Shown one piece after another: positions 18,609 through 62,457 of a DNA stretch of 64,000 nt. The stretch is from a virus (lineage: Duplodnaviria; Heunggongvirae; Uroviricota; Caudoviricetes): the IMG/VR virus record IMGVR_UViG_3300025073_000880; one strand, written 5' to 3'. How positions within the stretch are numbered: the first letter of the stretch is position 1; each line of letters starts with the position of its first letter. The notes under the pieces are model-generated. The model was not told where the DNA came from. It saw only the letters and a program-made list of their open reading frames with translations, and searched no databases. Made by a program: the position numbers and the translations under genes.

Positions 18609-18609
18609 A

Positions 18610-33289: not shown

Positions 33290-35350
33290 ACTATGTTCCT
33301 TACCGCCACCACACCACCACAGCTCTGCCTGCTCTCCCTCTCTCCCTATGAAGCAGTCTATCTATTGCTATATTAGTATTGGTAGACTATCCCTCTCCCA
33401 GAATGCTGTCTGGGTCATTGGGTCTGCTTCGGCGGTCGGTCGGTCGTTTAGCGTCGCTTTCATACCGCTAGAATATTTAAAGGCTATTCTCCATGTATGA
33501 ATATGGTCTTTACCACTCATCTTGGAAGCCCAAATATTTTGAGCCTTTTGATCAACGGTAAAATATCTATATAATATCCATATAAAAAACCACCATTCGT
33601 AGCTTACTGCTTACCTATATACCCAACGACGAGTTTGGTAGCAGGAAAGCCACAAATAGTGGTTCTTTTCGTCGTTGGCATATTTTCCTCTTTCTCTCTA
33701 CACCCATTACAGCATACGCATTTAACTGTGTCAAGACATCCCTAAAAAAAACCCTGTGGATAACTCATAAATATCACCTATTTTACCAACAAATTCCACA
33801 CCCTCTTACCATAAAAATTGCATAAATACACCACCAGTACCCCACCAATAAATAATCCAAATGTAACTAAACAATATACAAGCAATGCAATAACACTATA
33901 CACTACAACATCAATTAAAAATAACATATGTTTATATTCTTAGTTTATATTCTTAACCCTCAACACATTGGTGATATGATTAGTAACTACTACTATCTTA
34001 AACTTATAGATTTTGCGGGCAGTTAATGTCGCAAACATATTGCAATCATCGGCTTTGATGCCCACCAGCTATAAGAGTCCAAGGCATTTATGCAATATGC
34101 CAAGAGTTAAAAATATTACCTTTTATGCAATTTCTTTATCTTAACACACAAAACTTTACTTGTCAATCTAAATAACCATAAAACACCAAAACTGTCAATA
34201 TTACCCAAATCCTAGCCGGATTTTTTTTGACCCCAACTCTTTTTCACCTCTCCACCACCCTACCCAACTGCCCCCCCCCCTACCCCCAACCATCACACCA
34301 AAAGGACAAAACCTAACTAACACTCAACCTCCAGCTTCAATTCTGGGGTTCTACAAGCCCCGTACAGCATCGAAACTATACTTTTAATGATAATGTACCA
34401 CTCAGCCTTTTTAGACCCCTGTTTTGACACTCTTTTTGGATGACCCCTGGCTTTGAGGCCTAGGGCTTAGAACCCAAGCCTCAGGGCTCAAGGCTTAGGG
34501 CTTAGAACCCAAGGCTTAAAGCCCATAACCTGAAACCAAAAGCCAAAAGCTCAAGGCTTAAGGCTGGCAACCAAAAGATTAGTAACCACAAAGCAATGGG
34601 GCAACATAACCAGATAGACATACTCTTTCCTAAAATTTTATCCGCAGAGCGTGAGGGTACCATATATAAGGGGGGGGCACATTTGGGGGAGTCCCCGCCA
34701 AGACACTCCCCCCCCACCCTTCCACCACGCAACCACAAGCCTTCCGCCTTTGGGCTTTAGGCTCGTGAGTTGTGGGGGGGCTTGTAAGTTTTTTAGGTTA
34801 GGGCTTGAGGCTTGGGGCTTGGGGCAAAATACCTGTCGGGGAAAATGATATAGACTTGACTGTAACATTTTTAGTCTTTTGGCTTGTTCTATTAGTTTCA
34901 AGTGTCGGCAAATATACCTTTTACGACTCTTAGCTTTGGGCTGTGGATAAAAAAAACTACTCACTTGACAAGCAGAAAAAAATACTGTATCCTAATAATA
35001 GGAAGGAATGAACTGTACCATTGGCATATAGGCTAATATCTTTACACATTTTTGTCGAAAAAAAGGGACTATGGGTGATTATTCATCCACCTTGTCGGCT
35101 CAATGTGTTAGTAATTGGCTTGTAGAGCTTGGAGGCTCAAGGCTTGGGGGCGGGTAAGATAATAGTTGATTACTGCATCGGCTATTCCCGCCCTTAGCGG
35201 TTGGGCGTTCCATATGCCCTTTCGTCTTATGACGATTGCCCTCCGCCTTAGAGCCTTAAAGATCCAAAAATTATTTAACATTTCGCCATTTTTAGCTTAT
35301 TTTTCAATTTTAGCCAAAAAATGGGGCTTAAAATTGACCCATAAGAGATT
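33290..35350. other. Non-coding hub about 2 kb long where transcription diverges. Contains iteron-like repeats, hairpins and G/C homopolymer tracts. Candidate replication origin or regulatory region.
   Basis: No credible ORF. Minus genes end at its left edge and plus genes start at 35357. Contains an 18-bp direct repeat TAGGGCTTAGAACCCAAG x2 (34461 and 34494), GGCTTGAGGCTTGGGGCTTGGGG, and C10/G8/C8/G7 tracts at 34271, 34670, 34698 and 34774. Confidence 0.5.
34334..34432 (+). repeat. Conserved ~100-nt intergenic element, copy a.
   Basis: CTTCAATTCTGGGGTTCTACAAGCCCCGTACAGCATCGAAACTATACTTTTAATGATAATGTACCACTCAGC...TTTTGACAC. The two other copies are at 37949 and 62343 (reverse orientation). Confidence 0.6.
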
Positions 35351-35838
35351 AAAAAGGTGAAAGCGATAAAACATATGGCTAAAAAAACATTATTACAATT
35401 CGAGGCAGTGAAAGAGGGGGAGGCTCTTCTCCTCAAGGTCAAGGCAACAAAAAAATTGGAGGAGTTATTTAAAAATCTATCCGAGAGTTCAACAGGGCTT
35501 TCTGGTCGTTGGTATAATACCAACAATGAAGGGCTTCAGTTTTATACCAACAATGAAAAAATCAATGAGGCAATGAAGAAGTCAGTATCTTATTTTGACG
35601 AATATTTTTTTGATGATTTCGGGTCTGGGCTGATTGATGGGAGCAGAATAAATGTGGCTATCCTACGAGCTGTAGGGATTAGTGAAGGATTAACAATGCG
35701 GACAACAGAGCTTATCACTCACGATGGATTGAAGAATTATATTGAGAAGTTGGCACAATTTTCTAAGGATTTATACCAAAATTTTTTGAAAAAAGATAAA
35801 ATAAAGGCTTTAGTCACTTTTGAGATTTAAAAAAAAAT

Positions 35839-36540
35839 ATGAGAAACTTTAAAATCGGATTTGAGCTCGAGGGGAAATTTAATCAAAATATATACTATAA
35901 GACCAGAAAGCTAGGAGACTATAAGGGGGACGGATCTGTCACTGTTAGCGATTATCTTGGGAATTCAATCAGAGAAGAAGAATTTGCGAGTTATGCTAAT
36001 TTTGTTAAACCTACACTTGAGTTGTTGCGAACATTCATAATCGGAGAAAATTATATCTACAACAATACTTGTGGACTTCACTTGCATGTGTCCTTGTTTG
36101 ACTATCCATCCAGCATATTACAAAATCTTGCTACTTCGTGGAGTTTTATTTCAAAACTACAGGGAGAGGCTGGGACGATGTGTGAATGTGTTCAAGCGAG
36201 ATTAAAGGGTAATCGTTTTTGTCAAAAGTATAATAAGGCAAATTTTATGTACGACGCCGAAAACGGAACAAAATACCGCTTTTGTCGTTTTCATCCTATC
36301 GGGACGCTTGAGTTTCGGTTTTTAGCTCCTTGCGAGCATAGGGAGGACAACATTATGAAGTTATTGACATTGATTGATGATTATTTATTTTTAGCTAAAA
36401 AAATATACTCGCAAGAAGTTGAGGATGAAAAAACAAAAAATCAGAAAATTATTATTAATTTTGAAAAAATAGAAAATGCAGAAACAATAAACATTGTGAT
36501 AGATAATTGTCAGCCTTCTAGCATTAATCTTAATCTTTAA
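35839..36540 (+). CDS. Amidoligase-like (glutamine-synthetase-like amidoligase_2-type) protein. Tentative.
   Basis: N-terminal FELEGKF acidic motif and CGLHLHVSL His motif. Directly upstream of a class-II GATase-like gene. Confidence 0.35.
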   Translation: MRNFKIGFELEGKFNQNIYYKTRKLGDYKGDGSVTVSDYLGNSIREEEFASYANFVKPTLELLRTFIIGENYIYNNTCGLHLHVSLFDYPSSILQNLATSWSFISKLQGEAGTMCECVQARLKGNRFCQKYNKANFMYDAENGTKYRFCRFHPIGTLEFRFLAPCEHREDNIMKLLTLIDDYLFLAKKIYSQEVEDEKTKNQKIIINFEKIENAETINIVIDNCQPSSINLNL

Positions 36541-36546
36541 ATAAAT

Positions 36547-37323
36547 ATGTGTTATCTAGCAACAATTATTCCAACAAAAAAAAATAAAAAACTAAGTGAG
36601 GAAACCCAAAAAGCCTTTTTGGAAATTATGGTAGCCAAAATAAATGCTAATCCGCATGGCTTCGCCATGCTCACATCGGCAGGGCAAAAAATAAGAACCC
36701 TCAATCCAAAAATTTTTTATAAAATGATTGAAAAGAACATTGAAACCGATTTTGATTTTATGGTTTTTCACGCTAGATATGCTACGGCTGGGGATATGAA
36801 TTATCAAAATATACATCTATGGGACATTGACGGTTGGCATTTCGGGCATAATGGTTGGACAGGTAGGAATAGAACAAAAAATGTTAAATCTGATAGTTTA
36901 CTATTTTTTGAGGAATTGGCGGAAAAAATAAATACGACTGATAAAAAAGATGATAGCATTACTAAGGCAATCAATGAGACAGCTATATCTCACAATTTTA
37001 CTGGAAGGGCAATGTTATTATCGCCAAACAATGAAAAAATGTACTTATTCGGTGATTTTGAGGTTTATGTTCTTGATGATTGCATAATTATATCATCTGC
37101 AACAATTAGTTTTGAATATTCTGTAATCTCTTATGGCTTGGCTTTTGATAAAGAGATTGAATCATTGAATCAAAACATTGAGGGGGTTTACACCTTTGAC
37201 TTTGAATTATCTGAATTTAAGTTTTTGGCTAACAATGCAGAACATCCAAAAGAATATACTAACAGGACAATAGACTTCAATCGGTCTGTGGGCTTTGGGT
37301 TTGATTATGATCACAATTATTAG
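36547..37323 (+). CDS. Class II glutamine amidotransferase-like Ntn hydrolase (Cys2 nucleophile).
   Basis: Starts MC(Y); HARYATAGD and FGHNGW motifs, cf. the GATase_2 motifs MCGI / RYATxG / HNG. Confidence 0.55.
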   Translation: MCYLATIIPTKKNKKLSEETQKAFLEIMVAKINANPHGFAMLTSAGQKIRTLNPKIFYKMIEKNIETDFDFMVFHARYATAGDMNYQNIHLWDIDGWHFGHNGWTGRNRTKNVKSDSLLFFEELAEKINTTDKKDDSITKAINETAISHNFTGRAMLLSPNNEKMYLFGDFEVYVLDDCIIISSATISFEYSVISYGLAFDKEIESLNQNIEGVYTFDFELSEFKFLANNAEHPKEYTNRTIDFNRSVGFGFDYDHNY

Positions 37324-37948
37324 ATTTTACGATTTGGTGTTTGGGGGAATTACATAAATCCCCTTTGCATTAAATCATAAAAATAAAACTATGTATTATT
37401 GTGATTATTCATTGATATACTGTATGCCCGATGACAATACACAGGAGCTTTGTGTCAATATCTACAATCAACGAATTATTCGTGTTTATTCTGAAACTAT
37501 TGTAGGTGTATGGGATGATAGTGAAGATGTAGAAAAAACAATTAAAGAAGTCGCAGAAAGTAAAAATTTTGTGCCGTTTCATTTAATTCACGAAGATTAA
37601 AAATTTATGAAATTATTAACAAAAAAAATTATTGAGCGTTTTCGAGAAGTTGGTAGTCAAGAAAACAATCCTAATCCGATTGTTATAGCTAAATTTTTCA
37701 ATCCAGTTGGAGCTGGGACTTGGTATGCGACAGAATACAACGAGACAGAGCAAGTTTTTTTTGGCTATGTATCAATTTTTGGTGGGGGATGTGATGAGTG
37801 GGGTTATTTTAGCCTTGCAGAATTGGAGGAGTTGAAATTGCCTTTTGGTTTTGGGATAGAGAGGGATATTTTTGGAAAAGAAAAAAGGATAAAGGAATAT
37901 TTAAAATAAATAGAATGATGTTTTATAGTTTTAATGTTTAGCTTATAT

Positions 37949-38045
37949 CTTCAATTCTGAAGCTCTACAAGCCTCGTACAGCGATAAAATTACATTTTTA
38001 ATGGTATACCATTACTTTAAATTTTAAAGGGTCTGTTTGGCTTAA
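37949..38045 (+). repeat. Conserved ~100-nt intergenic element, copy b.
   Basis: CTTCAATTCTGAAGCTCTACAAGCCTCGTACAGCGATAAAATTACATTTTTAATGGTATACC... Confidence 0.6.
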
Positions 38046-38740
38046 TTTTTATATAATATCAATTTGAAAAACCGCCACAACTTGACGGAAAAGTAAAGAA
38101 AGCAAAAAAAATAAGTTTATGTCTCAAGAATTTAAACCATTCACTATGAATCAAGACGGACGGAGGAAAATAATGCCGTCAGAATATGAGGCAATCCGAG
38201 CTTATTATAAGTCGGTCAAATCGCAACGAGAAACCGCAAAATATTATGGAGTAAGCAGAAGATTGATTGTTTTTATCTTATATTTTGAACGATTGTCAAA
38301 ATTGTATGCTGATAGAAAAGAAAAAAAAAGTATGGTTAAAATATTATGACAGAGAAAAACATTGTAAAGCTATACAAAAAATAAGAGCAAAAAAACGCCT
38401 GTTATGTCCAGTTATTCAAAAATCTAAATAATAAATAAAATATAAATCTATGGGAATTTATGCAAAAGTGTCTGCCGAAATCAACTGTAATAACAAAAAA
38501 ACAACAAAAACAATAAAACAAGTGCTTAAAAAAATGGCACAAGAAGATGACAATGGGAATTTTAATTTTTCAAGTGTTTTAGTGGAAGGCGAAACTGTTT
38601 TTTTAGAACACGATAGTAATAGAAGTGTAAATCTGTATTGGCAATTAGAGAAAATTTGGGAAAAAATAAATGAAATTGAAGGGGTGCAGAATATGAATGC
38701 TCCAATTATGGTAGAAGGTGAAGGGTTTTACGCAGAAAAT

Positions 38741-38800
38741 TAGGTAAGTTTTCCACCTTTAGCCATTAGCCTTGAGCCTTTGGGGTTTGAGGCTATAAGC
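38741..38800 (+). repeat. Intergenic repeat (TTCCACCTTTAGCCATTAGCCTTGAGCC...GAGGCT), copy 1 of 2.
   Basis: Second copy at 39401-39470. Each follows the stop of a plus-strand gene. Confidence 0.5.
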
Positions 38801-39400
38801 AAAAGGTTGATAATTTAATATCTGAATACCTTAAATTTGAGAAAATTTTAATTAAATAACTATAAAAATGTATGAAAACTTACATAAGAACAACGACAAA
38901 TGGCAAGATTATAGTTGGATTGGTAAAAGATTTCAAAACAGTAGCAAGATTTGAGGATTATTATATTAGTGATTACTTGTCTGAAAAAATAAAGCGAGGC
39001 GAATTTGAAATAATAGGACAGCCAAAAGGCAATAAATATACAAGAGTAAAATTTACAAACTAATTTAAAAAATGTATGAATACTACAAAAGAACAATTAA
39101 ACAAAATAAAAAGTTGGTGTAAAGATTTTGAGAAATCAAATTTTGATATGCTTAACAATATAGATGAAAACACTTTTGAGGGATCAGCGTATATTATCTT
39201 TAAAAAAATTCTAAAAGATTCTAATAAATAAACAATAATAATTTAATATGACTTTTTATCAAAAATACAAATGGTCATGGCTAACATTAAAACAAAAAGA
39301 TTTACGCTTAAAGTGTGGACGGATAATGGGGGAAATACTTTACTGGCTTATTATAACAGCCGAAATAGCCATTATACTTTTAGTGTTTATTGGGTTGACT

Positions 39401-39470
39401 AAATAAGCCTTTCCACCTTTGGCAGTTAGCCTTGAGCCGTAAAGATTCGAGGCTTTGAGCGAAAGGTCGA
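39401..39470 (+). repeat. Intergenic repeat, copy 2.
   Basis: TTCCACCTTTGGCAGTTAGCCTTGAGCC...GAGGCTTTGAGCGAAAGGTCGAG. Confidence 0.5.
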
Positions 39471-40998
39471 GAATATAAATAACTAAAATAACTAATAACT
39501 ATAAAAAATATGGGGAGATATTATTCTGGGGATATCGAGGGCAAATTTTGGTTTGCAGTCCAAGATTCAAATGACGCTGATTTTTTTGGTGTAGTAGGTG
39601 ATGAAATCACAAACCTTCAGTATTACTTTTCAACCAAAGACTTAAAAAAGGTCAATGCAGGTGTCAAAAAATGCTTAACTGAATTGAGCAAGTATAAAAA
39701 ACAAATGGATGTTTTCTTTGAAAAAAACAATGTTTACAATGACGAGATGTTAAGAAAGTTTTTAGATATTACTATGGTGAAAACAAAAAAACTTTTAGTT
39801 TGGTATGCTAGGTTGGGACTTGGAGAAAAAATCCAAAAATGCCTTAAAGAAAGTGGGAGCTGTTGTTTCGATGCAGAAATTTAATTATTAACTTATATTT
39901 GTATGGGACAGTATTATCATCCAATAAACTTGGATAAAAAAGAACACCTTAGTAGCCACGATTACGACAATGGCCTGAAGCTAATGGAGCATTCTTGGGT
40001 AGGAAACGATTTTGTAGAAACAGTTTGTGAGCTATTAAAGCCAAATGGTAGTTGGTATAAAAATAGAATAGTTTGGCTTGGTGATTATGCAGATGACGAA
40101 AAGTTAAACAAGGCTTTAGATGACGGTAAAAGTAAAAAGATTGAACCGGAGAAAAAAGATAGCAATTCTGTTTATAAGTTTTTAGTAAATCACTCTAAAA
40201 AATACTTTGTAGATTTTTCGGAAATCCCAGAAGGGGATAGTGGTTGGAAAATTAACCCATTACCACTCTTAACCTGTGAGGGCAATGGCAGGGGTGGAGG
40301 TGACTTCCATGTCGAAAACAGTTTGGTCGGCTTATGGGCTAGGGATATTATACCGGTAGAGGATAAAAAGCCCAAGGGGTATGAAAAAATAGTATTTGAT
40401 TTGGTAGAATAATAAATTATTAAACTAAACATTTCATATGAAGATTACACAAAAAGAGTTGAAGAAATTCACGGCGGAAGATATGCCCGCCGAGTTTTCC
40501 ATGAACGAAGCTAGAAAGATAATTGAGGACATGAGCAATTTGGGGACTGTATCATTTAATTTTTATTGCCTTGAGGATAGTTCAGCCGACTCCTACTGGA
40601 ATGAGGCGAGGGTTGAAGTCAACAAGGACAACAGGTTTTATGAGGTTGTTTATAATTGTGATGTTAAGCTGTGGGATGATATGGCTCAAAAAGATTTGAT
40701 TGATATTATCAACGACCTTGAAGATGACGCCCAAAAAACCCTTTGTGCTTTTGGTGGTCGGGTTTATATTAAAGATTAAAAATAAAAATGATAGGACATA
40801 GTGGTGAAACATATATATGTTTCACTGCTATGTTTACTAGAATAAAGATTAACAAAAAACTATGGAAAATCAAAAAAATATTTGGCGAAAATTTAAACAA
40901 TGGTTTGTAAATCAAAATAGTTTGATATTTTCTTTGTGTATTTTTATTATGTTTGGTTTATTTATTAAGTTTGTAATAATTAAAATAATTAGAACCAT

Positions 40999-41415
40999 AT
41001 GAGTTTACTATCAACAAAAAAAGCTGCTAATTACCTTAATATTCATACCTCAACACTTATTGCATGGGAATATAGAGGGCTAATTCAACCGAAAAGAATA
41101 GGACTTGGAAAACAAAGAAGATATACCATCGAGAGTCTCGACTCTTTAATGGAATATATAAAACCTGAAAGAGAAAAGCCAATTAAAGATATGCTTCCTG
41201 TGCATATGGTTATGGAAAAATTGAATATAAGCAGACAAACTCTTTATAGGTGGAGAAAGGCTGGAAAGCTGATAGCTTATGATTTAGCGGGGAAAAAATC
41301 AAAGTATTACAAAAAGAATGATATTAAAAATCTTTTAGAAAATAGACAAGACAATCAATCGTGTAATTTTAATATTAAGTTTTTAAAAAATGAAGACTTG
41401 ATAGAGTGGGAATAA
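40999..41415 (+). CDS. DNA-binding protein with two MerR/excisionase-type HTH domains.
   Basis: AANYLNIHTSTLIAWEYRGLI and MEKLNISRQTLYRWRKAGKLIAY. Confidence 0.5.
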   Translation: MSLLSTKKAANYLNIHTSTLIAWEYRGLIQPKRIGLGKQRRYTIESLDSLMEYIKPEREKPIKDMLPVHMVMEKLNISRQTLYRWRKAGKLIAYDLAGKKSKYYKKNDIKNLLENRQDNQSCNFNIKFLKNEDLIEWE

Positions 41416-41747: not shown

Positions 41748-41765
41748 CTTATTATAACACAAGTC
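41748..41765 (-). promoter_or_regulatory. Conserved promoter-like motif, copy 4. It points into a gene-free ~250-nt stretch that ends at the terminator.
   Basis: TTATTATAACACAAGTCC. Confidence 0.4.
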
Positions 41766-42009
41766 CTATTATGTGAGAATAATTTTCATTGATATTTAAT
41801 TTATTGATTAGGGTATTTTTTATTTAATTTTATTAAAGTAATGAAAAATATAAGTAATATAATATGAAAAATATTGGAAAAGTTAGAGCTTGATTTTCTC
41901 CAATACTCACCAAATATCTTCCAAGTAAAAATTGGCAAGCAAACAATACAAATAATCCAACTATTACAAATATTTTTCTTTAGAATGATTTAATCATATT
42001 ATTTTTTAA

Positions 42010-42339
42010 TTATTTACAAACCCACCAATTAGGATGTTTTTTATAATTATTCATAAAACAGTCCACATTATCCCGATAATTAAACACATCACCAGAGCAA
42101 TAAGCTGAAAAAGTTCCGTCTAAAAACTGGTAAACCCCTTTGGCACTACTGTTAGGATTTCTTGCATGCGGATCATAATTGCTCTCACATTTGGCAATCC
42201 TCAATGATGTCTCAACATCTATATCATGCTTAATAGATTGAATAGTAATATAATCTTGAACTGTCATCGGTTCATCTGTCATCGGTTCATTGTGAAATCT
42301 CAATATCACTAATTGTATGAATATTAACGCTTCTAACAT
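42010..42339 (-). CDS. Transglycosylase-like (RPF/lysozyme-like) peptidoglycan hydrolase with an N-terminal hydrophobic anchor. Endolysin candidate.
   Basis: AKCESNYDPHARNPNSSAKGVYQFLDGTF matches the transglycosylase-like domain signature. N-terminal hydrophobic segment. Confidence 0.5.
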   Translation of the reverse strand: MLEALIFIQLVILRFHNEPMTDEPMTVQDYITIQSIKHDIDVETSLRIAKCESNYDPHARNPNSSAKGVYQFLDGTFSAYCSGDVFNYRDNVDCFMNNYKKHPNWWVCK

Positions 42340-42665
42340 AACCCGAGGTTATCATACTCTTCTTCTATTTCCTTCATTGACTCAAAACGAGGAGAAATTA
42401 ACCGTGTATTCAACGCCTTTGCAATATTTACAAGGGTACTTATTTTTATATCCTCCTCACCTTTTTCATAGCGTGCAATCGCAGGTTGTCTAGTATCAAG
42501 CTTATTAGCTAAATCAACCTGAGACATTGACTGAACAATTCTTGCCTCTCTTATCATCCTACCAATTTTATACTTAACATCTTTTAACTTTTTTACCTTA
42601 AAACCTCTAAAATCATTATCTTTTAGTAATTCATTTTCAAATTGTATTAATTCATCTTCTAACAT
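42333..42665 (-). CDS. XRE-family HTH transcriptional regulator.
   Basis: IREARIVQSMSQVDLANKLDTRQPAIARYEKGEEDIKISTLVNIAKALN. Confidence 0.65.
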   Translation of the reverse strand: MLEDELIQFENELLKDNDFRGFKVKKLKDVKYKIGRMIREARIVQSMSQVDLANKLDTRQPAIARYEKGEEDIKISTLVNIAKALNTRLISPRFESMKEIEEEYDNLGLC

Positions 42666-42857: not shown

Positions 42858-43964
42858 TTACTTAAATAATTTGTTTTGATTGTTACAATATAAAAACCTT
42901 GGACTGAACGGAGACGACTTTCTTTTATATCTTTTACACATAAATTGCCTCATTGTTTTTAACCCCTCCTGTCTATTTGAAGTAAACAGATTGTTTACCA
43001 CGCAGTCTCCACATTTAGACACCTCTATCTCATGAGCCATTTGATTTTCTGTCCAATCAACCCCATGATTATACGCCATAGCAGTTGTGTTATAGCTAGT
43101 TGACTTTTTTATTAAAGGGTCTCCGCAACAACACTTACCAGAAGATATGTGGTGCATATCGTTGTCTGCTATGCTATATGGTATATTATACTTTTCTAAT
43201 TCCTCTAAAACTGGTTTATATAATTCTTCTCTTATTGCTGGTTTCAAATTTAGAAGACCCATTTGTATAAAACTTTTCTTTGGTATTTTAAGATGTTTAG
43301 TTATAAATTCACTATGTTTTTTGTTTTGTGGGACTATCTTTATCCCTTCTATTGTAAAATAATCTGCATCATTAAACATCTCTACTATTTTTTCATCGGA
43401 CACACCTGGTATAAATGGTTGTATTCTTATGCCAACCTTGAAACCTCTATCTTTTAATGAACGATAAAACCTATACCTTTGTTCTATTGTTACTACATTA
43501 GATTCTATATCCATTCTATTATCAACATTTGTAATACTTAGTTGAAATGCGTGTAATTTTGGTTTTATTTCCGCCCCGTAAACAGAAAAACCCTTAGTAG
43601 AAAATAATATACTTATTCCATATCTGTTAGTTATATCTATCATTTTCTTTGTAGCCTCAAACTTTTCCTCTGATGGTTGAAATGGGTCGCTCATCCCCCC
43701 ACAATGCCAAGTTATTCCATCGTTTATTAACACCTCAAGATAGTTTGTTTTATTTACATTCTTATCATCAAATATCTTTTTTAGTTTTCTTTCTATGTAT
43801 TTTTCATCCCCTACCTGTAAGTCTTTTTCAAACTCCATTATTACTCTGTTGTTAGCAAAGCAATACTTGCAACCATGCGAACAATTTTTGTATGTATCTA
43901 CCCGTATAGGAAGACCACACAATCCAAATTTGCTACTAACACTTAATGGTATAAATTTCTTCAT
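42858..43964 (-). CDS. Radical SAM enzyme.
   Basis: CSHGCKYC (CxxxCxxC) near the N-terminus. Confidence 0.65.
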   Translation of the reverse strand: MKKFIPLSVSSKFGLCGLPIRVDTYKNCSHGCKYCFANNRVIMEFEKDLQVGDEKYIERKLKKIFDDKNVNKTNYLEVLINDGITWHCGGMSDPFQPSEEKFEATKKMIDITNRYGISILFSTKGFSVYGAEIKPKLHAFQLSITNVDNRMDIESNVVTIEQRYRFYRSLKDRGFKVGIRIQPFIPGVSDEKIVEMFNDADYFTIEGIKIVPQNKKHSEFITKHLKIPKKSFIQMGLLNLKPAIREELYKPVLEELEKYNIPYSIADNDMHHISSGKCCCGDPLIKKSTSYNTTAMAYNHGVDWTENQMAHEIEVSKCGDCVVNNLFTSNRQEGLKTMRQFMCKRYKRKSSPFSPRFLYCNNQNKLFK

Positions 43965-44000
43965 ATTTTTATAATTGTAAAGTAATTGTCAAGTAATCGC

Positions 44001-44232
44001 CAGCAGGCTGAAGGTGAGTGGGTAATGGACTTCCACCATTACACGATACCCTAGTCGGGGGCATCTCGGTGTGGTGTTCCCACTATCCGACTTTACGGTT
44101 TCACCTAGCGTCTATCTTCCGCCACCACTCACCACCGCAGTCTGCCCGATTGAGCGAGGAGGCAAAGCCCCCACTGCGGTTTTCAGCCTCTGTATGTCTA
44201 ACAGAGCTGGATTACTCCAGCCTGCTGGGGGC
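44001..44232. ncRNA. GC-rich structured RNA candidate, family unknown. It could be the 5' leader of the radical SAM gene if transcribed on the minus strand.
   Basis: GC much higher than its surroundings. A 10-bp closing helix CAGCAGGCUG/CAGCCUGCUG encloses several nested perfect hairpins (GUAAUGG/CCAUUAC, AGUCGG/CCGACU, CCGCAGU/ACUGCGG, CUCUGU/ACAGAG). No credible ORF. Confidence 0.4.
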
Positions 44233-45453
44233 TAGTTACTACCAAGAATATTTACCACAGTTGCAGGTAGCTTGACTGCTATCAACCAAACAAAATCCAC
44301 AATGTTCACAATATGGAACATCATTTTGCTTTGGTTCTTCAATGCTTGTGTTGTATATAGTTTTTTCTTCGCTCATATTAGATGACAGATGACAGTGGAA
44401 ATATACTTTTTTCTCTGTTCGTTGCCTCACATAATTCATCTGGTGGGTTTTCATTTCTTTTTTTTGTATGAGGAGTTTCTTTCCCACACAACCGACACCT
44501 ATACCAATAATAAGTTTCTGACAATGTAGAATTTATATCGCTCATTAACGGAAAATAATCATGTTTCATATATAGTTTAAAGTAACATTTTTTGTCTTAA
44601 TCTATCTTCCCCAATTTCACAATAATTTTTATTTATTTCACATCCTATGAAATTCCTGCTTAAATCAATTACGGCATAGCTGGGATTATTTTATCTTCAA
44701 CGCTAATCTCACCGAACAGATTTTTGTTTTTATTCAATTTCATTTTATTTTTCTCGCTTAATCTGGAGGCTTGGATGGTATTGGGGCGTGAGATAGTGTC
44801 CCCATTTAGTTTTACATCTACGCAATTTTTTTTAAACACCCCCAAGCCCCCCAGACTAGGCGAGAATGTCGCCTAGAGAGGTTATTTGGTTATACCTTTA
44901 ACTGCCCACATTACTGATTCTTCTAGCTTTGTTTTTGCTAATGCAATTTCACGACCGTTTTTCTCATTCAAGCCAACATGAATTGCCAGCAATAATTGAT
45001 AAGCTACATCTTTGATGTTATCAATTCTCATCGCATCTTCCTCTGAAAGGTTATGATATATAGGATGAAAAATGTTTTCTAGTTCTCCCGTACATTTATT
45101 TTATTATTTATTTTGTCATTAAGACCCATTTAACATCAGGAAACGCTTTAACAAAGCTTTTCTTTGCCTTTGCATTATTACTCTTCGCCTTTTTTATTAT
45201 TTCTTTTTCAGTTATTTCTTTAAGTGGTATTATGAACAAACTAATGATAAACGGATTCCCAGCCCACACGTGCCAACTTCTTTGTGTTTTATCAAGCCAG
45301 ACATAATCAGATATTTGTTTCCCATTCGCTTTACCCATATTTTTAATTCTTAGAGCCACCCTGCCCCCGTATTAGAGACCTCACGCTTGTCGTTCACCGT
45401 GGGTGAAGGAGGTGCAACAATATACAAAGGGCAGAGTGGCTTTATGAAAAAAA

Positions 45454-46935
45454 CTAAATAATAATTCGTTTATACCTGTCGGAGTTAATCGTATTCATCA
45501 TAACCTCATAAGGCGTTTTATTCTCAACTGCCATCTTGAATATTACAGGAGAAAAGCCGGAAACCATTGACACGCCTCGCTCACTCTCTTTGACTGGCAA
45601 ATTCTCTCCGCTTGCATTTACATTCCAAAACACTAGATTCGGTCTGACATACCCCAGCTGGGAATACTTTTGTTCAATAACCTCAAAATTAGTTTGGTCG
45701 CCATAAGTAGCCTGGTCAAACTCCATGTCTGAAATAATGTAAATCGTGTCTGGCATTTCATCTTCCGGCGTGCTGTTCTGAACGGCAGTTGTTAAAATTA
45801 AATCAAACACAGCCTGAACGTTGGTGTTAGCTACGTCCCCAAGCTGAATGCTATTCATTTTATCCCTCAAATTTGCACCTTGAACCTTATGTAATTTCGG
45901 CTGTCCTGAAAATGAAATAAAGTAATTCTGGAATTGTCCTTTATTTCTCTCAGCAAAATATAGTGCCAACGAAACAGATACAGATATTGGGACGCCAGTC
46001 ATCGATCCTGATGTGTCAGCTACTACTAAGGCATTTTTCCCTTGTGTATAATCAGGTAGCTGATTCCATAAGGCTTCAAGCGTTTTAGAATAATCCGCCC
46101 AAACGGAATTGTATATTTGATATGGATATAATGTCCCTGCATTTATCTTCACCTCACCTTTTTCTGCCTTTTCAATAAACTTTTCATACCTCTTCTCATC
46201 GTGTTTCTTAAAGACATTTTTATAAATTCTTGACGCTTGGCTTGGAACAACAGAATAATTTATATCCGGCCACTTTTTAGCTGACATCTTTTCTTCAACT
46301 GTCGCTATTTTTTTTCTAATAGACCTGATAAGTTTTCTATAAGCCATTTCATCTATCCCTAACCCATTAGCCATAAATCTTGCTTTTTTTCTGGTATTAA
46401 GGCTTGAAGCGTTAATGGTTGGAAGCCATTTAGCCAGCAGGGACGGTTTATCCTCCTTTTGGTCTTTTTCCAGTTGGCTTTTAATCAACAAGAAACATTT
46501 TTTATTATCAAAAAATAAATCATCAAAGCGACCATACTCTTGGACAAAATCTACAATCTTTTCAAATATAGAAGGTTCATTTTCACCTAACCATTGCAGA
46601 CAAACCCTAAATAAGGCTCGCTCACCCTGGCCTCCCCTTATATCTCTAAGATAAAACAAAACCTTAATTGCCTTTTCTCTATCTTCCGAAAACGCTCGTT
46701 TGAATAAATCAAGGGCTTTTTTAGGCTCACCCCTCATCGCTCCAGCCTGAGCATAAAAATCTAAAAGAGCCGACTGCGTTCGAGTAAAAGTCTTTGCCTC
46801 GTTTTTTGTTCTCCCATAGGACGTGTTTACATACATCCCATTGATTAAAGAATTCCCACTTGATTTCTTTGCTCCTTCAGGAGCTTTCATCTCATTGATG
46901 TTTTTCATATTTTTGAAACAAGACGCTTTTAACAC
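45454..46935 (-). CDS. rsr: Ro60/Rsr ortholog (TROVE domain plus vWA domain).
   Basis: YLRDIRGGQGER TROVE region and VVADTSGSMTG MIDAS motif. 493 aa. Confidence 0.65.
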   Translation of the reverse strand: MLKASCFKNMKNINEMKAPEGAKKSSGNSLINGMYVNTSYGRTKNEAKTFTRTQSALLDFYAQAGAMRGEPKKALDLFKRAFSEDREKAIKVLFYLRDIRGGQGERALFRVCLQWLGENEPSIFEKIVDFVQEYGRFDDLFFDNKKCFLLIKSQLEKDQKEDKPSLLAKWLPTINASSLNTRKKARFMANGLGIDEMAYRKLIRSIRKKIATVEEKMSAKKWPDINYSVVPSQASRIYKNVFKKHDEKRYEKFIEKAEKGEVKINAGTLYPYQIYNSVWADYSKTLEALWNQLPDYTQGKNALVVADTSGSMTGVPISVSVSLALYFAERNKGQFQNYFISFSGQPKLHKVQGANLRDKMNSIQLGDVANTNVQAVFDLILTTAVQNSTPEDEMPDTIYIISDMEFDQATYGDQTNFEVIEQKYSQLGYVRPNLVFWNVNASGENLPVKESERGVSMVSGFSPVIFKMAVENKTPYEVMMNTINSDRYKRIII

Positions 46936-46960
46936 TATAGATTAACAGTCTATTGTTTTA

Positions 46961-47240: not shown

Positions 47241-47296
47241 ATACAATTAACTTATTTACTTGACGATTACTTGACAATTAGATATAGGAATATTTT

Positions 47297-49441
47297 TTAA
47301 CCCTTGATTACCGCTAATGGATTTAATTCCACAAGTATTTCAACCAAATCTGCCTGGTTTTGCATAACTTCATCTATTGGCTTATATGCGCCAGGGGCTT
47401 CCTCCAAATCATCTTTGTTCCTCATCCCGTGAATTATCCCTTTGTCATCCATTATTTTCTTTTGTTCATCAAAGTCTAACTGTTCACACGCCGCCTTTCG
47501 CCCTAGCCTTCTCCCTGCTCCATGTGAACATGATTCAAACGATTCTTTATTTCCAAGACCTTTGACGATATATGACTTTGTTCCCATTGAACCAGGAATT
47601 ATTCCGATTGTTCCTTCTCTTGCTAAGGTCGCACCCTTTCTGTGAACCCAGACGTTCTGTCCAAAATGATTTTCTTGTGTGGCGTAATTATGAGCAATGT
47701 TAATAAGTCCACTATTGTCGCCATTTTCATTTTTAACTATAAAATTAGTTATTTCAAAAGCAGTCTTGTAATCCATCTCCCTTAAAAAACAGCCAACAAT
47801 TCTATCCATCATCAATTTTCTATTTGCCAAGGCGAACTCTACACAATACTGCATTTCTCCGATATATGCCTGCCCCTCATCACTATCAACTGGTAAAAAT
47901 GCCAGCTGCCATTCTTTCGGGACTGAACTGTGCCATTTATCGTTTAATTCAACAGCTAATTTGTTGTAATAGTCAGCCACCTGCTTGCCTAGGTTTCGGC
48001 TACCACTATGTATCATTATCCAGATATGCCCATCAGATCCTTTTTGTATTTCAATAAAGTGGTTACCACCGCCAAGAGTTCCTATTTGTTTTAGAGCAGA
48101 GTTATATTGCTCTTTGATTATTGGTTTCCCAACATCATAGTTTGTGGGCATTAAATCCTCGTTTTGTTTTTCTTTATGATGATTAAATCCAACTGGTATT
48201 TGCTTTCTTGTCTCTCCCATTATTTTTTTTATGGTTTCAGTCTCAATTTCAGTTAGAGATGTTTTGACCGCACACATTCCGCAGTTCCCTGTAATAAATA
48301 TTTTATTGTTTCTTCTGGCGATAAAATAACCAGTCTCAACTACAAAACAATACTTCTTTCCATCTTTTATCTTTATTTTTTTAGGTTTACTAAATCCAAC
48401 ATAATTATTTTGCGTTTGATATACATGATACCAATCTTTCCAGTTCTTTTGTTTACTCCTAATAATACCTATACCCGCCCTTATCCCATTTAGGGCACAT
48501 ATATATTGGATAGCATCTGCGTTTATTTTATTTGTCGTAGCATATGTTTTGTGATGTCTTTTTTTGTCTATTGAGCCGTCCCAATATAAATATTCATCAA
48601 AAACAACCTTTGCCTGATTTTGGTTACAGTTATACAAATCGGTTAAATCTTTATCGCAAACCCAATCTACTTTAAAACTGATTGATTCTGTCCCATCTTT
48701 ATGAAAATATTCTTTAAAAAAAACATTAGACTTTTTTAATAAAAATTTACATCTCTCTATCTTTCTTCTTTTCTTGAAGTGCATTTCAATAGTGGTATGC
48801 TTGTTTGATTTATTTCTTATATGTCCATCAGCCGACGCCATAACTCTAATAGCTAGTTGCTCATCAGATAATTTTATGCCAGATTCACGCGTAGGGAAAG
48901 TAGTTCTAATGGAATAATAATCTTGTTTTTTACATTTCAACAACATTTCTCTAAAATCCTTGCAAAAATAAGTATAATCATTTTTCTTCCTGCCATAGCC
49001 TTTATAAACCAACATTCTATGTTCATCGCTTAAAACATGGTCTAATCCATATTTATTTTTATATTCAGTAAAATTTTCACAAGGCTTAACGATATATAAT
49101 AACGGTTTACTGAAAAAAGATGTTTCTTTATAATTATCCCAAACTAAAACGTCTTCGTTGTTATATTTATCAATAGTTATCCATCCGTTTTTAGTTAAAA
49201 CTTCGGTTTCTTTATCCACTGCCCCGATATCTACACCCACAGCGTTTGGAATTATTACGCCTTTGGTCGCCAATACACCACCGATAGGCATACCGTAACC
49301 AACATGGCTGTCAGGCATGATAGCGATGTGTTTAAATGCAAATGGAAGATTCGCAAGATTCTTGGCTTGTGCTAATGCTTCATCCTCAATGTCCTTGAGC
49401 CACATCTTTATTGGTATTTTTTCGGTTGCAACAACTTCCAT
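47297..49441 (-). CDS. rtcB: RtcB RNA 3'-phosphate ligase interrupted by an intein.
   Basis: IMPDSHVGYG, GGGNHFIEIQ and SCSHGAGRR motifs. About 313 aa are inserted between VGVDIG and CGMCAV. Confidence 0.8.
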   Translation of the reverse strand: MEVVATEKIPIKMWLKDIEDEALAQAKNLANLPFAFKHIAIMPDSHVGYGMPIGGVLATKGVIIPNAVGVDIGAVDKETEVLTKNGWITIDKYNNEDVLVWDNYKETSFFSKPLLYIVKPCENFTEYKNKYGLDHVLSDEHRMLVYKGYGRKKNDYTYFCKDFREMLLKCKKQDYYSIRTTFPTRESGIKLSDEQLAIRVMASADGHIRNKSNKHTTIEMHFKKRRKIERCKFLLKKSNVFFKEYFHKDGTESISFKVDWVCDKDLTDLYNCNQNQAKVVFDEYLYWDGSIDKKRHHKTYATTNKINADAIQYICALNGIRAGIGIIRSKQKNWKDWYHVYQTQNNYVGFSKPKKIKIKDGKKYCFVVETGYFIARRNNKIFITGNCGMCAVKTSLTEIETETIKKIMGETRKQIPVGFNHHKEKQNEDLMPTNYDVGKPIIKEQYNSALKQIGTLGGGNHFIEIQKGSDGHIWIMIHSGSRNLGKQVADYYNKLAVELNDKWHSSVPKEWQLAFLPVDSDEGQAYIGEMQYCVEFALANRKLMMDRIVGCFLREMDYKTAFEITNFIVKNENGDNSGLINIAHNYATQENHFGQNVWVHRKGATLAREGTIGIIPGSMGTKSYIVKGLGNKESFESCSHGAGRRLGRKAACEQLDFDEQKKIMDDKGIIHGMRNKDDLEEAPGAYKPIDEVMQNQADLVEILVELNPLAVIKG
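48284..49222 (-). mobile_element. Intein (about aa 74-386 of RtcB) with a LAGLIDADG endonuclease domain.
   Basis: Begins AVDKETEVLTKNGWITI (block A-like, Ala1). Ends ...KIFITGN followed by Cys+1. Internal LAIRVMASADGHI and YLYWDGSIDKK motifs. The exteins total ~401 aa, the normal RtcB size. Confidence 0.6.
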
Positions 49442-52618: not shown

Positions 52619-53653
52619 TTAACTCTCAATTTTCATCGAAAGATAATTTTGTAATTTCAGCCCAAACTTCCAACTCATACACTCATCAGCCGTCTTACCT
52701 TTGGCGTATTCTGGGTCAATCCCTGACACATATATCCTGCCTGTTGACGGACAACTATACCGCAGAAAATAGGCATCGGGGAAACTCATAAAATCCTTGA
52801 CTAGCCACAACTCATTTCCTCTGTCTGATTTTTCTACCATTCTACCTTTTAGGGATCTTAGCATCACTTCGCTATCGGCATACTTCAACGCAATCATCCT
52901 CTGTTCCATATTCTTCATTGACATTATTTCTTCACCCGATAATTTTTTTTCAACAACCTTATCAAACAAATCTTTCTCAAAACGAACTCCGTGAAGAAAG
53001 TAAAACTCTTTGCCGCCTTTCCATTTTATTGCCGGTTTTAATTCTGAATGAAATTCATTGTCTTTATCCAATAAAACAAGTGGTGTAGGAACTAGGTATA
53101 ATACACCTTCATACTCAACTCTATACCCAAGCCCATATTCTTTAGCTTGCATTAAAAGCTCACAATGTTCTAAATACTTATAATCATTTTCGTTTGGTAA
53201 ATTTTCTTTGTCTGGATTCTGACAATACTCAAATTCATAAACATACCAATCAAAATCATAATCTATGGCTGACCAGGCTGACCAGGCTGACCCGGCTGAC
53301 CCGGCTGACCCGGCTGACCTGGCTGACCAGGCTGACCCGGCTGACCCGGCTGACCTGGCTGACCCGGCTGACCCGGCTGACCTGGCTGACCAGGCTGACC
53401 CGGCTGACCAGGCTGACCAGGCTGACCTGGCTGACCCGGCTGACCAGGCTGACCCGGCTGCATCTTGAAACTTTTTTACAAAAATATCTACACACCACAT
53501 TATTTTATTTGGTCGTGGAAGATCGAAAATATCATACGTTTTCAAAATACACTCCTCGGCGTTTTTCTTGTCCAATTCAAAATCTTTGCGTTCAACATTT
53601 CGGCACATCCTATCAATTAAATCTTGTGTTTTTTGTGAGTAATTATGTGTCAT
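52619..53653 (-). CDS. Hypothetical protein with an internal (SAWSAGSAR)n repeat.
   Basis: Encoded by about 22 units of the 9-bp repeat GGCTGACCN at 53265-53462. Confidence 0.4.
53265..53462. repeat. Tandem 9-bp repeat GGCTGACC(A/C/T), about 22 copies.
   Basis: Perfect periodicity. GC-rich island in an AT-rich genome. Confidence 0.85.
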
Positions 53654-60139: not shown

Positions 60140-60482
60140 ATTTATTTTAGCATCAACGATTTTTTATTTTTCAAAAATGTGTCTACATCGACCAACTCAT
60201 CTTTTATTTTATCAATGGCAGACGTGGTGAGCATCCACTCCTTAGTCTTCTTATCTAAATAGAAAATAGCGTTATTATCCTTAGTGAAAAAAGTGTGCCC
60301 ATTATTTGTATATATCGTTTTCCCTAAAAACTCTTTAGGCGTTCCTGCGTGTTCAAAATACGGGCTTAAAAGCTGTTCAAGCCTATCTACCCAGATTGAC
60401 TTTTTAACAGCCCATGCTTTTACAGCTGAAACAAATTCCTCATCAGTTAAAACAAACTCTTCTTTTTTATATTTTATCACTT

Positions 60483-61121: not shown

Positions 61122-61123
61122 AC

Positions 61124-61897: not shown

Positions 61898-62234
61898 ATT
61901 TTTACTTTTTAAATTTCATCAATAAATCTATAATCCCACTAATCTTTTGGTCAGTAAGGTGAAAGTCAGAAAACCCATTATCTTTTCCTTGCCATTCTTT
62001 ATCAAAAAATTCAAAAATATACCCCTCAGAAGTTCGCATTATTTTACAGCCAATAGTTGCTCCTGTATTTATTTTTTTATCTTCAGGCATAAGCCTCTAA
62101 TTAATAGTCAAAAAAATTTGACAAGTTTACTTTTAAGGTTTATCTAAAACATGGCAAGCAGAGTTAGAGCCGAACTGACCCAACAGCTTTTGAAGAGCCG
62201 TTCGCCATCCTTGGAACATTTCCGCCCACATGTA

Positions 62235-62306
62235 GTACTCAGAACAGGGTTTGAACCTGCGACCAAAGAGGTATAAACTCTCCGCTCTACCGCTGAGCTA
62301 TCTGAG
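62235..62306 (-). tRNA. tRNA-Ile, anticodon UAU (reads AUA). No CCA is encoded.
   Basis: Acceptor ACUCAGA/UCUGAGU; D arm GCUC-AGCGGUA-GAGC; anticodon arm GAGAG-UUUAUAC-CUCUU; T arm GCAGG-UUCAAAC-CCUGU. Confidence 0.7.
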
Positions 62307-62342
62307 TAAAACCGACATATTATGAAACATTAACCCCCAATG

Positions 62343-62457
62343 TGTCAAAATCGTGTCTTAAATGGCGTTTTTATCGTTTTTTTCGCTGAGTAGTATCTAA
62401 CCATTAAAAACATAGTTTCATCGCTGTATGGGGCTTGTAGAGCCTCAGGATTGAAGC
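62343..62457 (-). repeat. Conserved ~100-nt intergenic element, copy c (reverse orientation), immediately upstream of tRNA-Ile.
   Basis: Reverse complement reads CTTCAATCCTGAGGCTCTACAAGCCCCATACAGCGATGAAACTATGTTTTTAATGGTTAGATACTACTCAGC...TTTTGACAC. Confidence 0.6.

Follow-up and report, generated by a model that had tools for sequence, protein, structure and literature searches.

A non-coding sequence of ~105-125 nt is present as three paralogues in the window under investigation, a stretch of 64,000 nucleotides from a groundwater phage with a genome of ~92 kb and with distant relatives that have been binned with the Patescibacteria. The copies are real, co-oriented with the genes that they precede, and positioned in variable regions, and one of them has an orthologue in a metagenome fragment. 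By analogy with the promoter-early stem-loops (PeSLs) of T4-type phages, the element is possibly a phage-specific cis-regulatory cassette that operates at the level of DNA, and this is the reading that we tentatively prefer. Recognition by a protein, a regulatory effect, and a possible part in recombination are what we infer for it.

Results

Three copies of the element

The positions of the three copies are as follows.

34333-34440, plus strand: copy 1, found by repeat search and BLAST; core 34333-34406, with the end motif TTTTGACAC at 34421-34429
37946-38050, plus strand: copy 2; core 37946-38005; the most diverged 3' half, without a TTGACA box
62339-62459, minus strand: copy 3; core 62385-62459; a 19-nt A-rich insertion relative to copy 1

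A sequence-only reading had located the copies at essentially these positions, and the repeat search and BLAST both agree with it; the consensus quoted there is also correct against the aligned copies. Its estimate of ~80% identity over ~100 nt holds with respect to identity, which ranges from 79 to 85%, but not with respect to length. Indeed, the high identity is confined to cores of 58-74 nt, and the homology that continues out to ~105-125 nt is weaker, with the 40-60 nt past the core only weakly alignable among the copies. The repeat search paired 34333-34406 with 62385-62458 (74 nt, 81%) and 37946-38005 with 62400-62459 (60 nt, 85%). A BLAST search of each copy against the window yielded E-values of 2e-15 for copies 1 and 3, 2e-14 for copies 2 and 3, and 2e-9 for copies 1 and 2 (58 nt, 79%). 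The invariant 19-mer TCTACAAGCCNCNTACAGC, with up to three mismatches allowed, occurs three times in the window against an expectation of 0.05, and the end motif TTTTGACAC is shared by copies 1 and 3 only. Differences between the copies are nearly all transitions. The spacings are 3.6 kb and 24-28 kb, and no further copies were found in the adjoining 10 kb on the right side of the window and 1.5 kb on its left side.

The word near position 35110 that had been regarded as kin of the element proved not to be so. The match, at 35117-35130, extends over 12-14 nt with BLAST E-values of 0.07-0.9, and because the word reappears in an (SSST)n-coding minisatellite at 14.2-14.5 kb, it is attributed to chance or low complexity rather than to a fourth copy. 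Kinship of the element with that minisatellite was rejected as well, given that this 12-14 nt word is all they have in common.

Comparison with the map of open reading frames bears out the claim that all three copies are intergenic. Every reading frame shared between copies is broken by stop codons and by insertions or deletions that are not multiples of three, and thus the copies are non-coding. A 37-residue minus-strand open reading frame runs over copy 1, and stop codons interrupt this frame in copies 2 and 3. With no frame open across the copies, a protein-coding element was dismissed.

Genomic setting

Each copy heads a block of accessory or replication genes in a variable region and is co-oriented with the genes downstream (three of three, for which the probability by chance is 1/8). 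For copy 2, an open reading frame begins 70 nt downstream, at 38119, and the next plus-strand frame after copy 1 starts ~940 nt away at 35375, such that the description of two copies as preceding plus-strand genes is apt for copy 2 and loose for copy 1. That copy 3 precedes tRNA-Ile was confirmed.

62235-62307, minus strand: tRNA-Ile (anticodon TAT), the gene that follows copy 3 most closely

Copy 1 is located in a putative origin hub, where it is flanked by two perfect DnaA boxes, and there are no others in the 64 kb. Copy 3 adjoins replication genes, and the segment that contains it differs between the phage and its relative L044 from the conserved DUF5659 anchor to the conserved Prim-Pol anchor. 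With respect to the proteins flanking the copies, one of 258 residues has no homologue other than itself among 5.8 billion sequences, and the open reading frames of 301 and 152 residues have no family match. No recombinase gene is present in the annotated parts of the phage, and no RNA polymerase family was detected in the PHROG/Pfam annotation of the window and its flanks. True group I introns occur elsewhere in the window.

Conservation and database searches

The sole orthologue found, that of copy 1, is carried by L046, a metagenome fragment from sample Ga0100403, and was identified in a second pattern search of metagenome contigs; a first, gapped pattern had produced no match in them.

34190-34445: block of ~255 nt shared with L046 at 87-95% identity, comprising copy 1, a C-rich tract, and a hairpin
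34203-34228, plus strand: hairpin followed by T8, inside the shared block

The hub around this block is only 25-65% identical in L046, and the conservation ends where a GGGCTYA minisatellite starts. Long invariant runs in the core are common to all four sequences (the three copies and L046), and the block TTTTAATG reads ATTCAATG in the orthologue. Conservation peaks at the promoter-distal end of the element, where there is a sharp 5' boundary, and fades toward the genes. The strain contigs are all 100% identical across the copies, and thus no constraint can be measured from them.

Relatives were sought via TerL loci and via the 301-residue, 258-residue, and primase proteins in IMG/VR. The closest protein homologues are at best 60% (primase) and 71% (DUF2958) identical, and none of the relatives anchored on TerL, the 301- and 258-residue proteins, the primase, or DUF2958 is close enough to have kept the element. 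Searches with nhmmer and with covariance model R1 gave nothing significant in relatives at ~60% protein identity. The element is absent from these, then, and present in one fragment of a close relative, L046. Note that the distant relatives have repeated intergenic promoter/stem-loop cassettes of their own (L044 I1, L026 D3, and L018 D2).

No match to Rfam 15 was observed over the copies, even at E-values up to 5, in a gathering scan of the window and in E-value scans, and a megablast search of 30-42 kb against phage GenBank entries yielded no match. The invariant 19-mer was found at 16 loci in IMG/VR, 12 of which fall in one conserved coding gene. A stem-relaxed pattern returned nothing in IMG/VR, nor did two patterns on GTDB genomes. 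Two candidate relatives were set aside: a 22-nt stretch shared with L011 in a divergent promoter spacer, which has no further homology and no shared proteins and is possibly a chance match, and L018 4291-4413 (E 0.15, or 0.0019 in a 3-kb search), judged to be a generic palindromic hairpin that is non-homologous.

Several known classes of feature were also considered and rejected. The element is not a tRNA-like fold (neither an acceptor nor a T arm), a Bacteroidetes-type promoter (no -33 TTTG), a MerR-type promoter (the spacer would be 21 nt), a transposon or MITE (no terminal inverted repeats), a diversity-generating retroelement or retron (no reverse transcriptase), or a group I intron fragment (no P/Q/R/S elements).

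Palindrome and folding

The conserved portion of each copy contains an imperfect palindrome of 47 nt.

34332-34378: palindrome of copy 1, with outer 8-bp arms CAGCTTCA/CGAAACTA
37946-37992: palindrome of copy 2
62413-62459: palindrome of copy 3, the best-folding copy (antisense -19.5 kcal/mol, z -3.3)

The inner hairpin of the copy 1 palindrome is GGGGTT-CTACA-AGCCCC. Relative to the flanking genes, the antisense strand has the 17-pair structure paired in 97.1% of cells and the sense strand in 79.4%; two invariant and four variable G-U pairs on the former would become A-C mismatches on the latter. For copies 1, 2, and 3, the antisense strand folds at -15.8, -9.9, and -19.5 kcal/mol and the sense strand at -9.7, -4.8, and -11.4 kcal/mol. 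The corresponding antisense z-scores of -1.7, -0.9, and -3.3 are owed in part to the G+U richness of that strand, and the sense strand, with z-scores of -0.7 to -1.8, folds no better than shuffled sequence. Covariation, proposed as a check on the element, did not emerge: among the 17 pairs there is one compensatory pair in the four sequences compared, a result matched by 248 of 500 shuffles. The 266-nt conserved block likewise folds as shuffled sequence does, with z-scores of -0.13 and -1.31 on the two strands. This behavior of the block, together with the lack of covariation, tends to argue against a structured RNA. The palindrome, positioned 35-60 nt before the TTGACA box, is not followed by a U-tract and thus is no intrinsic terminator.

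Promoters and transcription signals

The predicted promoters near copies 1 and 3 are listed below.

62319-62348, minus strand: sigma-70-type promoter TTGACA-18-CATAAT (11/12 match), with the final conserved block of copy 3 as its -35 box
34138-34166, minus strand: leftward hub promoter TTGACA-17-TAAGAT, both hexamers kept in L046 with a different spacer
34965-34993, plus strand: rightward hub promoter candidate CTTGACAAG-17-TATCCT, 600 nt downstream of copy 1

No other strong sigma-70-type promoter occurs in the spacer of copy 3, and transcription from this one is predicted to start a few bases ahead of tRNA-Ile. Given that its -35 box is at the end of the element, the core would be upstream of the tRNA-Ile transcript. 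Copy 3 is the only copy with a full promoter downstream, and there it precedes a tRNA rather than an open reading frame. In copy 1, both in the phage and in L046, TTGACA is present without a -10 box, and in copy 2 a TATAAT is found at a different spacing without a -35 box. The conserved core itself contains no acceptable pair of sigma-70-type -35 and -10 hexamers on either strand. Between the core and the promoter signals the distance varies (73-113 nt), as would not usually be expected of an activator site.

Copy 1 sits between the divergent hub promoters at 34166 (minus strand) and 34965 (plus strand), behind the plus-strand hairpin and T8, and hence probably belongs to spacer that is not transcribed. 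Upstream of copy 2 is a gene without a visible terminator, and thus this copy is probably transcribed. No promoter or terminator was found that would frame the element as an RNA gene.

Discussion

Of the three roles suggested by the sequence-only reading, namely a promoter or leader cassette, a small RNA family, and a recombination site, the first fits the evidence best on account of the co-orientation, the entry of copy 3 into the TTGACA-18-CATAAT promoter, and the positions of the copies at the heads of variable gene blocks. A small RNA family is weakly supported in light of the missing Rfam match, the single compensatory pair, the modest z-scores, and the lack of a framing promoter and terminator. 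A recombination site is possible only in a passive, PeSL-like sense, since no recombinase gene was found in the annotated parts.

According to the reading that we prefer, the conserved palindrome of ~47 bp and the A/T-rich tail would form a DNA-acting cassette some 70-115 bp upstream of the transcription signals of three accessory or replication gene blocks, and a DNA-binding protein encoded by the phage or by its host would recognize the core and thereby co-regulate the three units. Candidate binders are encoded nearby: a 76-residue helix-turn-helix protein just downstream of copy 2 (38119-38349), a double helix-turn-helix MerR-like protein (40999-41415), and a Cro/CI-like protein (42333-42665). 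Incidentally, the homologous copies, scattered as they are, might also serve as crossover points for the swapping of the ORFan genes that they flank, as has been proposed for PeSLs. Several observations count against this model. The better pairing on one strand (97% versus 79%) is not explained by a double-stranded DNA site, and the conserved core contains no sigma-70-type pair, with a full promoter predicted downstream of copy 3 only. The variable distance between the core and the promoter signals, the probable transcription of copy 2, and the chance probability of 1/8 for the shared orientation weigh against it too.

It is unlikely that the copies are neutral remnants of past duplication or recombination, decayed promoter cassettes for example, the likeness of which would reflect recent common origin rather than selection. 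The predominance of transitions, the promoter parts that are complete in one copy only, the absence from relatives at ~60% protein identity, and the uniform population contigs, which hide any constraint, are all in keeping with such an origin. It is difficult to reconcile, however, with a copy 1 block that is 87-95% identical to L046 in a hub of 25-65% identity, with sharp core edges and long invariant runs in all four sequences, or with the non-random positions at the heads of gene blocks. A signal in the sense-strand RNA, within the 5' or an internal leader of early and middle transcripts, is unlikely; it would function as a processing site, as a Rho-loading or antitermination signal, or as a leader with a short upstream open reading frame. 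The co-orientation of all three copies and the placement of copy 2 inside an apparent operon with no upstream terminator would suit such a role, as would a conserved 7-bp hairpin with one compensatory change from G-C to A-U and the conserved ATG in TTTTAATG, which opens frames of 8-27 codons in all copies. These frames, however, diverge in phase and length after ~7 codons and have no ribosome-binding site, the ATG-containing block is replaced in L046, and the sense strand shows no folding advantage over shuffles. In addition, the core of copy 3 is upstream of the tRNA promoter, and the rightward promoter lies 600 nt downstream of copy 1, which itself is preceded by a terminator-like hairpin.

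Function as a single-stranded nucleic acid on the antisense strand, either a small structured RNA or a hairpin in single-stranded DNA, is unlikely too. In the latter case, it could act in priming or helicase loading for the phage Prim-Pol/DnaB, similar to ssiA/ssiB of RSF1010, or be a template-strand hairpin recognized by a polymerase. The superior pairing and lower folding energies of that strand in all copies speak for it, as do the sharp conservation boundary directly after the hairpin and the location of copy 1 between perfect DnaA boxes and of copy 3 beside replication genes. Against it are the one compensatory pair, matched by about half of the shuffles, the z-scores that stem partly from base composition, the lack of an upstream promoter and a downstream U-tract on that strand, and the end of L046 conservation at the would-be 5' end. 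Moreover, RNA from copies 2 and 3 would run antisense into coding genes, and neither an Rfam match nor, in the annotated parts, a virion-type RNA polymerase was detected. That the 47-nt antisense-strand hairpin, as single-stranded DNA or RNA, represents a new class of phage signal is likewise unlikely. If it did, it might provide loading or priming sites for a fused Prim-Pol/DnaB replicase at three dispersed origins, for example, or constitute a new family of small RNAs among phages that infect Patescibacteria-like hosts. A strand-specific hairpin, if functional, would be the more interesting finding.

On present evidence the element is an ordinary kind of feature. Should the preferred reading of a DNA-level cassette be correct, this would be one more phage in which a few near-identical intergenic cassettes coordinate accessory and replication blocks and perhaps also shuffle them. 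To our knowledge, nothing has been reported on the control of transcription or replication in this uncultured lineage, whose relatives are binned with candidate phyla. The three sites and the hub, with its DnaA boxes and divergent promoters, would provide concrete targets for the mapping of transcripts and origins, should the phage or its DNA be obtained.

Comparison with known systems

Phage N4 has three conserved hairpin early promoters, which its virion RNA polymerase reads from a template-strand hairpin with a stem of 5-7 bp and a loop of 3 nt, centered near -12. The element is similar in having three conserved copies upstream of early units and a hairpin that forms more fully on the template (antisense) strand, but no gene for a giant virion RNA polymerase is present in the annotated parts of the phage. 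The nut/put sites of lambdoid phages lie downstream of the promoter within the transcript. They too are repeated, co-oriented cis elements with a hairpin, one per early unit. In the element, by contrast, the core of copy 3 is upstream of its promoter, the sense-strand structure is weak, there is no match to boxA or boxB, and no N or Q homologue was found. In the IncQ plasmid RSF1010, the single-strand initiation signals ssiA and ssiB lie together inside oriV. Like the element, they are hairpin sites of ~40 nt, conserved and oppositely oriented, and they too are associated with a replicon that has a primase and a helicase of its own. The copies of the element, however, are kilobases apart rather than together, they share no sequence similarity with ssiA/ssiB, and a priming role for them is putative.

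The closest parallel is provided by the promoter-early and promoter-middle stem-loops, PeSLs and PmSLs, of T4-type phages (Arbiol et al. 2010, PMC2839356; Comeau et al. 2014, PMC4122927). The element and PeSLs are not similar in sequence, and the phage is unrelated to T4. The element differs further in that it has three copies only, its conservation falls on the stem-loop region and not on the promoter, a full -35/-10 pair occurs in one copy, and the hairpin has no U-tract. The promoter (-35/N17/-10), Shine-Dalgarno sequence, and start codon expected in each PeSL cassette are not found together in each copy, and recombination at the copies was not observed, the contigs being all identical. Nevertheless, the PeSLs/PmSLs and the element alike are short, repeated intergenic motifs, co-oriented with genes. 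They may also have in common a stem-loop just upstream of a sigma-70-type promoter and a concentration in variable, ORFan-rich regions, which for PeSLs extends to sites beside indels between close relatives. The known architecture of PeSLs includes degraded copies with just the stem-loop and the -35 box (PMC4122927), an arrangement matched by copy 3, with copy 1 comparable to a "half" copy.

Extent and sequence of the copies

The sequence-only reading had described a conserved non-coding element in three intergenic copies, and its coordinates, consensus and intergenic position were all correct.

34333-34440, plus strand, copy 1
37946-38050, plus strand, copy 2
62339-62459, minus strand, copy 3

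The similarity of about 80% was likewise confirmed, but the strongly conserved part is shorter than the ~100 nt proposed, namely a core of 58-74 nt. A repeat search paired 34333-34406 with 62385-62458 (74 nt, 81%) and 37946-38005 with 62400-62459 (60 nt, 85%), and copy-versus-copy BLAST within the 64 kb window gave E-values of 2e-15, 2e-14, and 2e-9. The invariant 19-mer of the element occurs three times versus 0.05 expected. In the alignment the 5' edge is sharp, at CTTCAAT, and differences between copies within the core are nearly all transitions. A less well conserved tail of 40-60 nt, with a 19 nt insertion in copy 3, follows on the 3' side; of the three, only copies 1 and 3 end in TTTTGACAC. 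The related word at 35117-35130 is a match of only 12-14 nt and is not counted as a copy because its word family also builds the (SSST)n-coding minisatellite at 14.2-14.5 kb. No further copies were found in 11.5 kb of flanking DNA fetched from the ~92 kb genome. A second intergenic cassette of 69 nt (78%) is present twice between small early ORFs, at 38750-38818 and 39410-39478 on the plus strand; its AGCCTT...GAGGCT hairpin precedes AAAGG and a start codon.

The three copies have no reading frame in common. A 37-codon minus-strand ORF crosses copy 1, its frame is broken by stops in copies 2 and 3, and indel lengths between copies are not multiples of three. Rfam returned no match over the copies at gathering scores nor at E-values up to 5; the element matches no described family.

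Predicted structure

On the gene-sense strand, RNAalifold predicts only a 7 bp hairpin, GRRGYU-CUACA-AGCCYC. On the antisense strand, which is opposite to the flanking genes, it predicts a 47 nt extended hairpin with 17 pairs, arranged as an outer stem of 8 bp, then 2 bp, and then an inner stem of 7 bp. When the same pairs are counted on both strands, 97.1% of cells are paired on the antisense strand versus 79.4% on the sense strand, where two invariant and four variable G-U pairs turn into A-C mismatches and thereby lower the value. The z-scores of the 58 nt core are -1.7, -0.9, and -3.3 (antisense) and -1.0, -0.7, and -1.8 (sense). The hairpin holds one compensatory pair, a count equalled in 248 of 500 shuffles. 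Given this lone pair and these z-scores, the strand asymmetry of the hairpin is suggestive, not established, and the structure of the element is without statistical support.

The phage and its promoters

The large ORFs of the window match phage portal, large terminase, primase-helicase, GroEL, RtcB, and DNA methyltransferases. Exact-protein look-ups placed its sequence in groundwater metagenome contigs of 76.8-92.6 kb, and all strain contigs recovered are 100% identical to it over the regions of interest. The conserved proteins of the closest relatives show only about 60-67% identity. A candidate-phyla bacterium is the probable host, since binning assigned several relatives' contigs to Patescibacteria, Paceibacterota or Moranbacteria. 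Gene orientation is leftward as far as about 33.3 kb, rightward between 35.4 and 41.4 kb, and once more leftward beyond 42 kb. Annotation of the ORFs of the window and flanks detected neither an RNA polymerase gene nor one for a sigma factor; three HTH regulators are encoded near the copies.

The sigma-70-type promoters of the phage read CTTGACAAG-N17-TATAAT, as at 58183(-), 32777(-), 10120(-), and 34965(+), and TTGACAAG-style promoters are also used by a relative (L044) and by IMG/VR contig 3300027091_000001 (L011). A separate extended -10 type, GGACTTGTGTTATAATA, with a conserved GGACT box, is present in four copies.

Copies of GGACTTGTGTTATAATA
1726-1747, minus strand
22793-22815, minus strand
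28949-28970, minus strand
41758-41779, minus strand

Three of the four precede structural or packaging genes, and GGACTTGTGTTATAATA probably represents a phage-specific class of late promoters that differs from the first.

Setting of the copies

Copy 1 lies in a ~2 kb hub, flanked by divergent promoters at 34166(-) and 34965(+). It retains TTGACA without an acceptable -10 box, both here and in L046, a metagenome fragment from a related phage; the 34166(-) promoter keeps its -35 and -10 boxes in L046 with a different spacer.

DnaA boxes of the hub region
33755-33763, perfect TTATCCACA, within a stretch conserved in L046
34638-34646, one mismatch
34942-34950, perfect TTATCCACA

The two perfect boxes are the only ones in 64 kb and flank copy 1, and for this reason the hub is probably the replication origin; gene orientation and GC skew both switch within it. 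At about 33548-33672(+) is a candidate small RNA with a TTGATC-16-TATAAT promoter, about 90 nt, and a 3' hairpin (AGCCAC..GTGGTT) with a T-run; its body is kept in L046, where the hairpin changes still pair via G-U. The minisatellite GGGCTYA / GGCTTAG adjoins copy 1 (34455-34560, 34800-34825) and is much longer in L046 (1-250). Runs of 7-10 C or G residues also occur in the hub.

Copy 2 follows a DUF2958 gene with no terminator visible between them, is probably transcribed, and precedes a 76 aa HTH-like ORF by 70 nt. It has TATAAT without a -35 box. Just to its right, a terminator-like hairpin, CCGTCAAGTTGTGGCGG plus T5 (38066-38088, minus strand, opposite to the early genes), is a hint that the 38.1-38.9 kb ORFs are also transcribed in antisense.

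The end of copy 3 forms the -35 box of a TTGACA-18-CATAAT promoter (11/12), preceded by an A-rich tract. Its predicted start is a few bases ahead of tRNA-Ile, which would place the conserved core about 70-130 nt upstream of the start. ORFs upstream of copy 3 gave no family match, the genes that copies 1 and 2 enclose are ORFans, and the copy 3 segment differs from L044 between conserved DUF5659 and Prim-Pol anchors.

Relatives

The suggested search of related genomes found the element absent from distant relatives, yet a close relative carries one orthologue. The element was not found in GenBank phages, IMG/VR or GTDB species genomes, nor in distant relatives' loci by nhmmer or by covariance model R1 of the antisense structure. 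A match in locus L018 was rejected as a homologue, being a generic palindromic hairpin. A stem-relaxed pattern retrieved the sole metagenome fragment, L046 (1525 nt), to whose minus strand the hub aligns with 87-95% identity over 34190-34445 versus 25-65% over its remainder. The conserved block exceeds copy 1, including also a C-rich tract and, on the plus strand, a hairpin with T8 after it (34203-34228), and ends exactly where the GGGCTYA minisatellite starts. On neither strand does this 266 nt block fold better than shuffles (z = -0.13 and -1.31). Several positions deviant in copy 1 are consensus in the orthologue, and TTTTAATG, otherwise invariant, is replaced there by ATTCAATG.

The unrelated 70 kb viral contig L011 has 22 identical bases in common with the element, GGCTCTACAAGCCCCGTACAGC, in a divergent spacer (780-822) about 100 nt upstream of a ACTTGACAAG-type promoter. 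Beyond these bases no homology and no common proteins with the phage were found; the match could be chance or a protein-binding word common to both.

Other features of the window

At 16575-21192(-) a structural protein of roughly 420 aa, continuous in three relatives (L019, L021, L025), is broken into several ORF pieces with ORF-bearing inserts between them, and these inserts carry what we take to be group I intron R/S-like elements, TCAGAGACTACA and GATATAGTCC. Rfam Intron_gpI matches at 20287-20414 and 19340-19513 are sub-threshold (E about 1e-6). Repeats at 18657-18706 and 20303-20352 have three homologous counterparts in relative L026. At 43964-49441(-) lie a 714 aa RtcB RNA ligase with a LAGLIDADG-type insert and a neighboring DUF2828 / PHROG-850 'RNA-binding protein' that may be Ro-like; 43964-45454 (1.5 kb) has tiny ORFs only, one with an Acb2/Tad1 hairpin domain. 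Bacterial rsr-Y RNA-rtcB operons exist, and thus a Y-RNA-like gene could be present; an Rfam E-value scan detected none. The minisatellite at 14199-14530 encodes an (SSST)n tail at the C-terminus of a 298 aa structural protein, and the minus strand of a GGCTGACCN 9-mer array (53267-53470) would encode collagen-like G-Q-P repeats.

Interpretation

The element is real, phage-specific, non-coding, and present in three copies, and a single orthologue is carried by a close relative. Our tentative reading, held at less than even confidence, is a DNA-level cis-regulatory cassette that a putative DNA-binding protein would recognize ahead of three transcription units; the homologous dispersed copies may double as recombination points. 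All three copies point as their downstream genes do and lie in accessory regions. Confidence is held down because the strand bias of the hairpin is not accounted for, the distance from core to promoter signals varies, and copy 2 is probably transcribed.

That the copies are neutral duplication remnants is unlikely, albeit the foremost of the rivals; copy 1 is conserved in L046 well above the rest of the hub. A signal in a sense-strand leader ranks below it: the read-through expected at copy 2 and the 7 bp sense-strand hairpin are consistent with such a leader. Ranked last, and doubtful, is a hairpin of antisense-strand RNA or single-stranded DNA, to which the pairing bias points and for which shuffles give no statistical backing; should mapping of expression or replication reveal a function for that hairpin, the finding would gain in interest.

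For the cis-regulatory cassette, the closest known analogue comes from T4-type phages: their PeSL/PmSL cassette is a sigma-70-like promoter with a stem-loop just upstream, found mostly in hyperplastic, ORFan-rich regions (PMC4122927, PMC2839356); in degraded PeSL copies the stem-loop and -35 box alone remain (PMC4122927). Here, in contrast, a full promoter accompanies one copy only, the hairpin does not form a terminator, and the copies have no documented recombination event. Because of these differences we do not claim membership in PeSL/PmSL; the most plausible view is that the element is a phage regulatory repeat of an ordinary kind.
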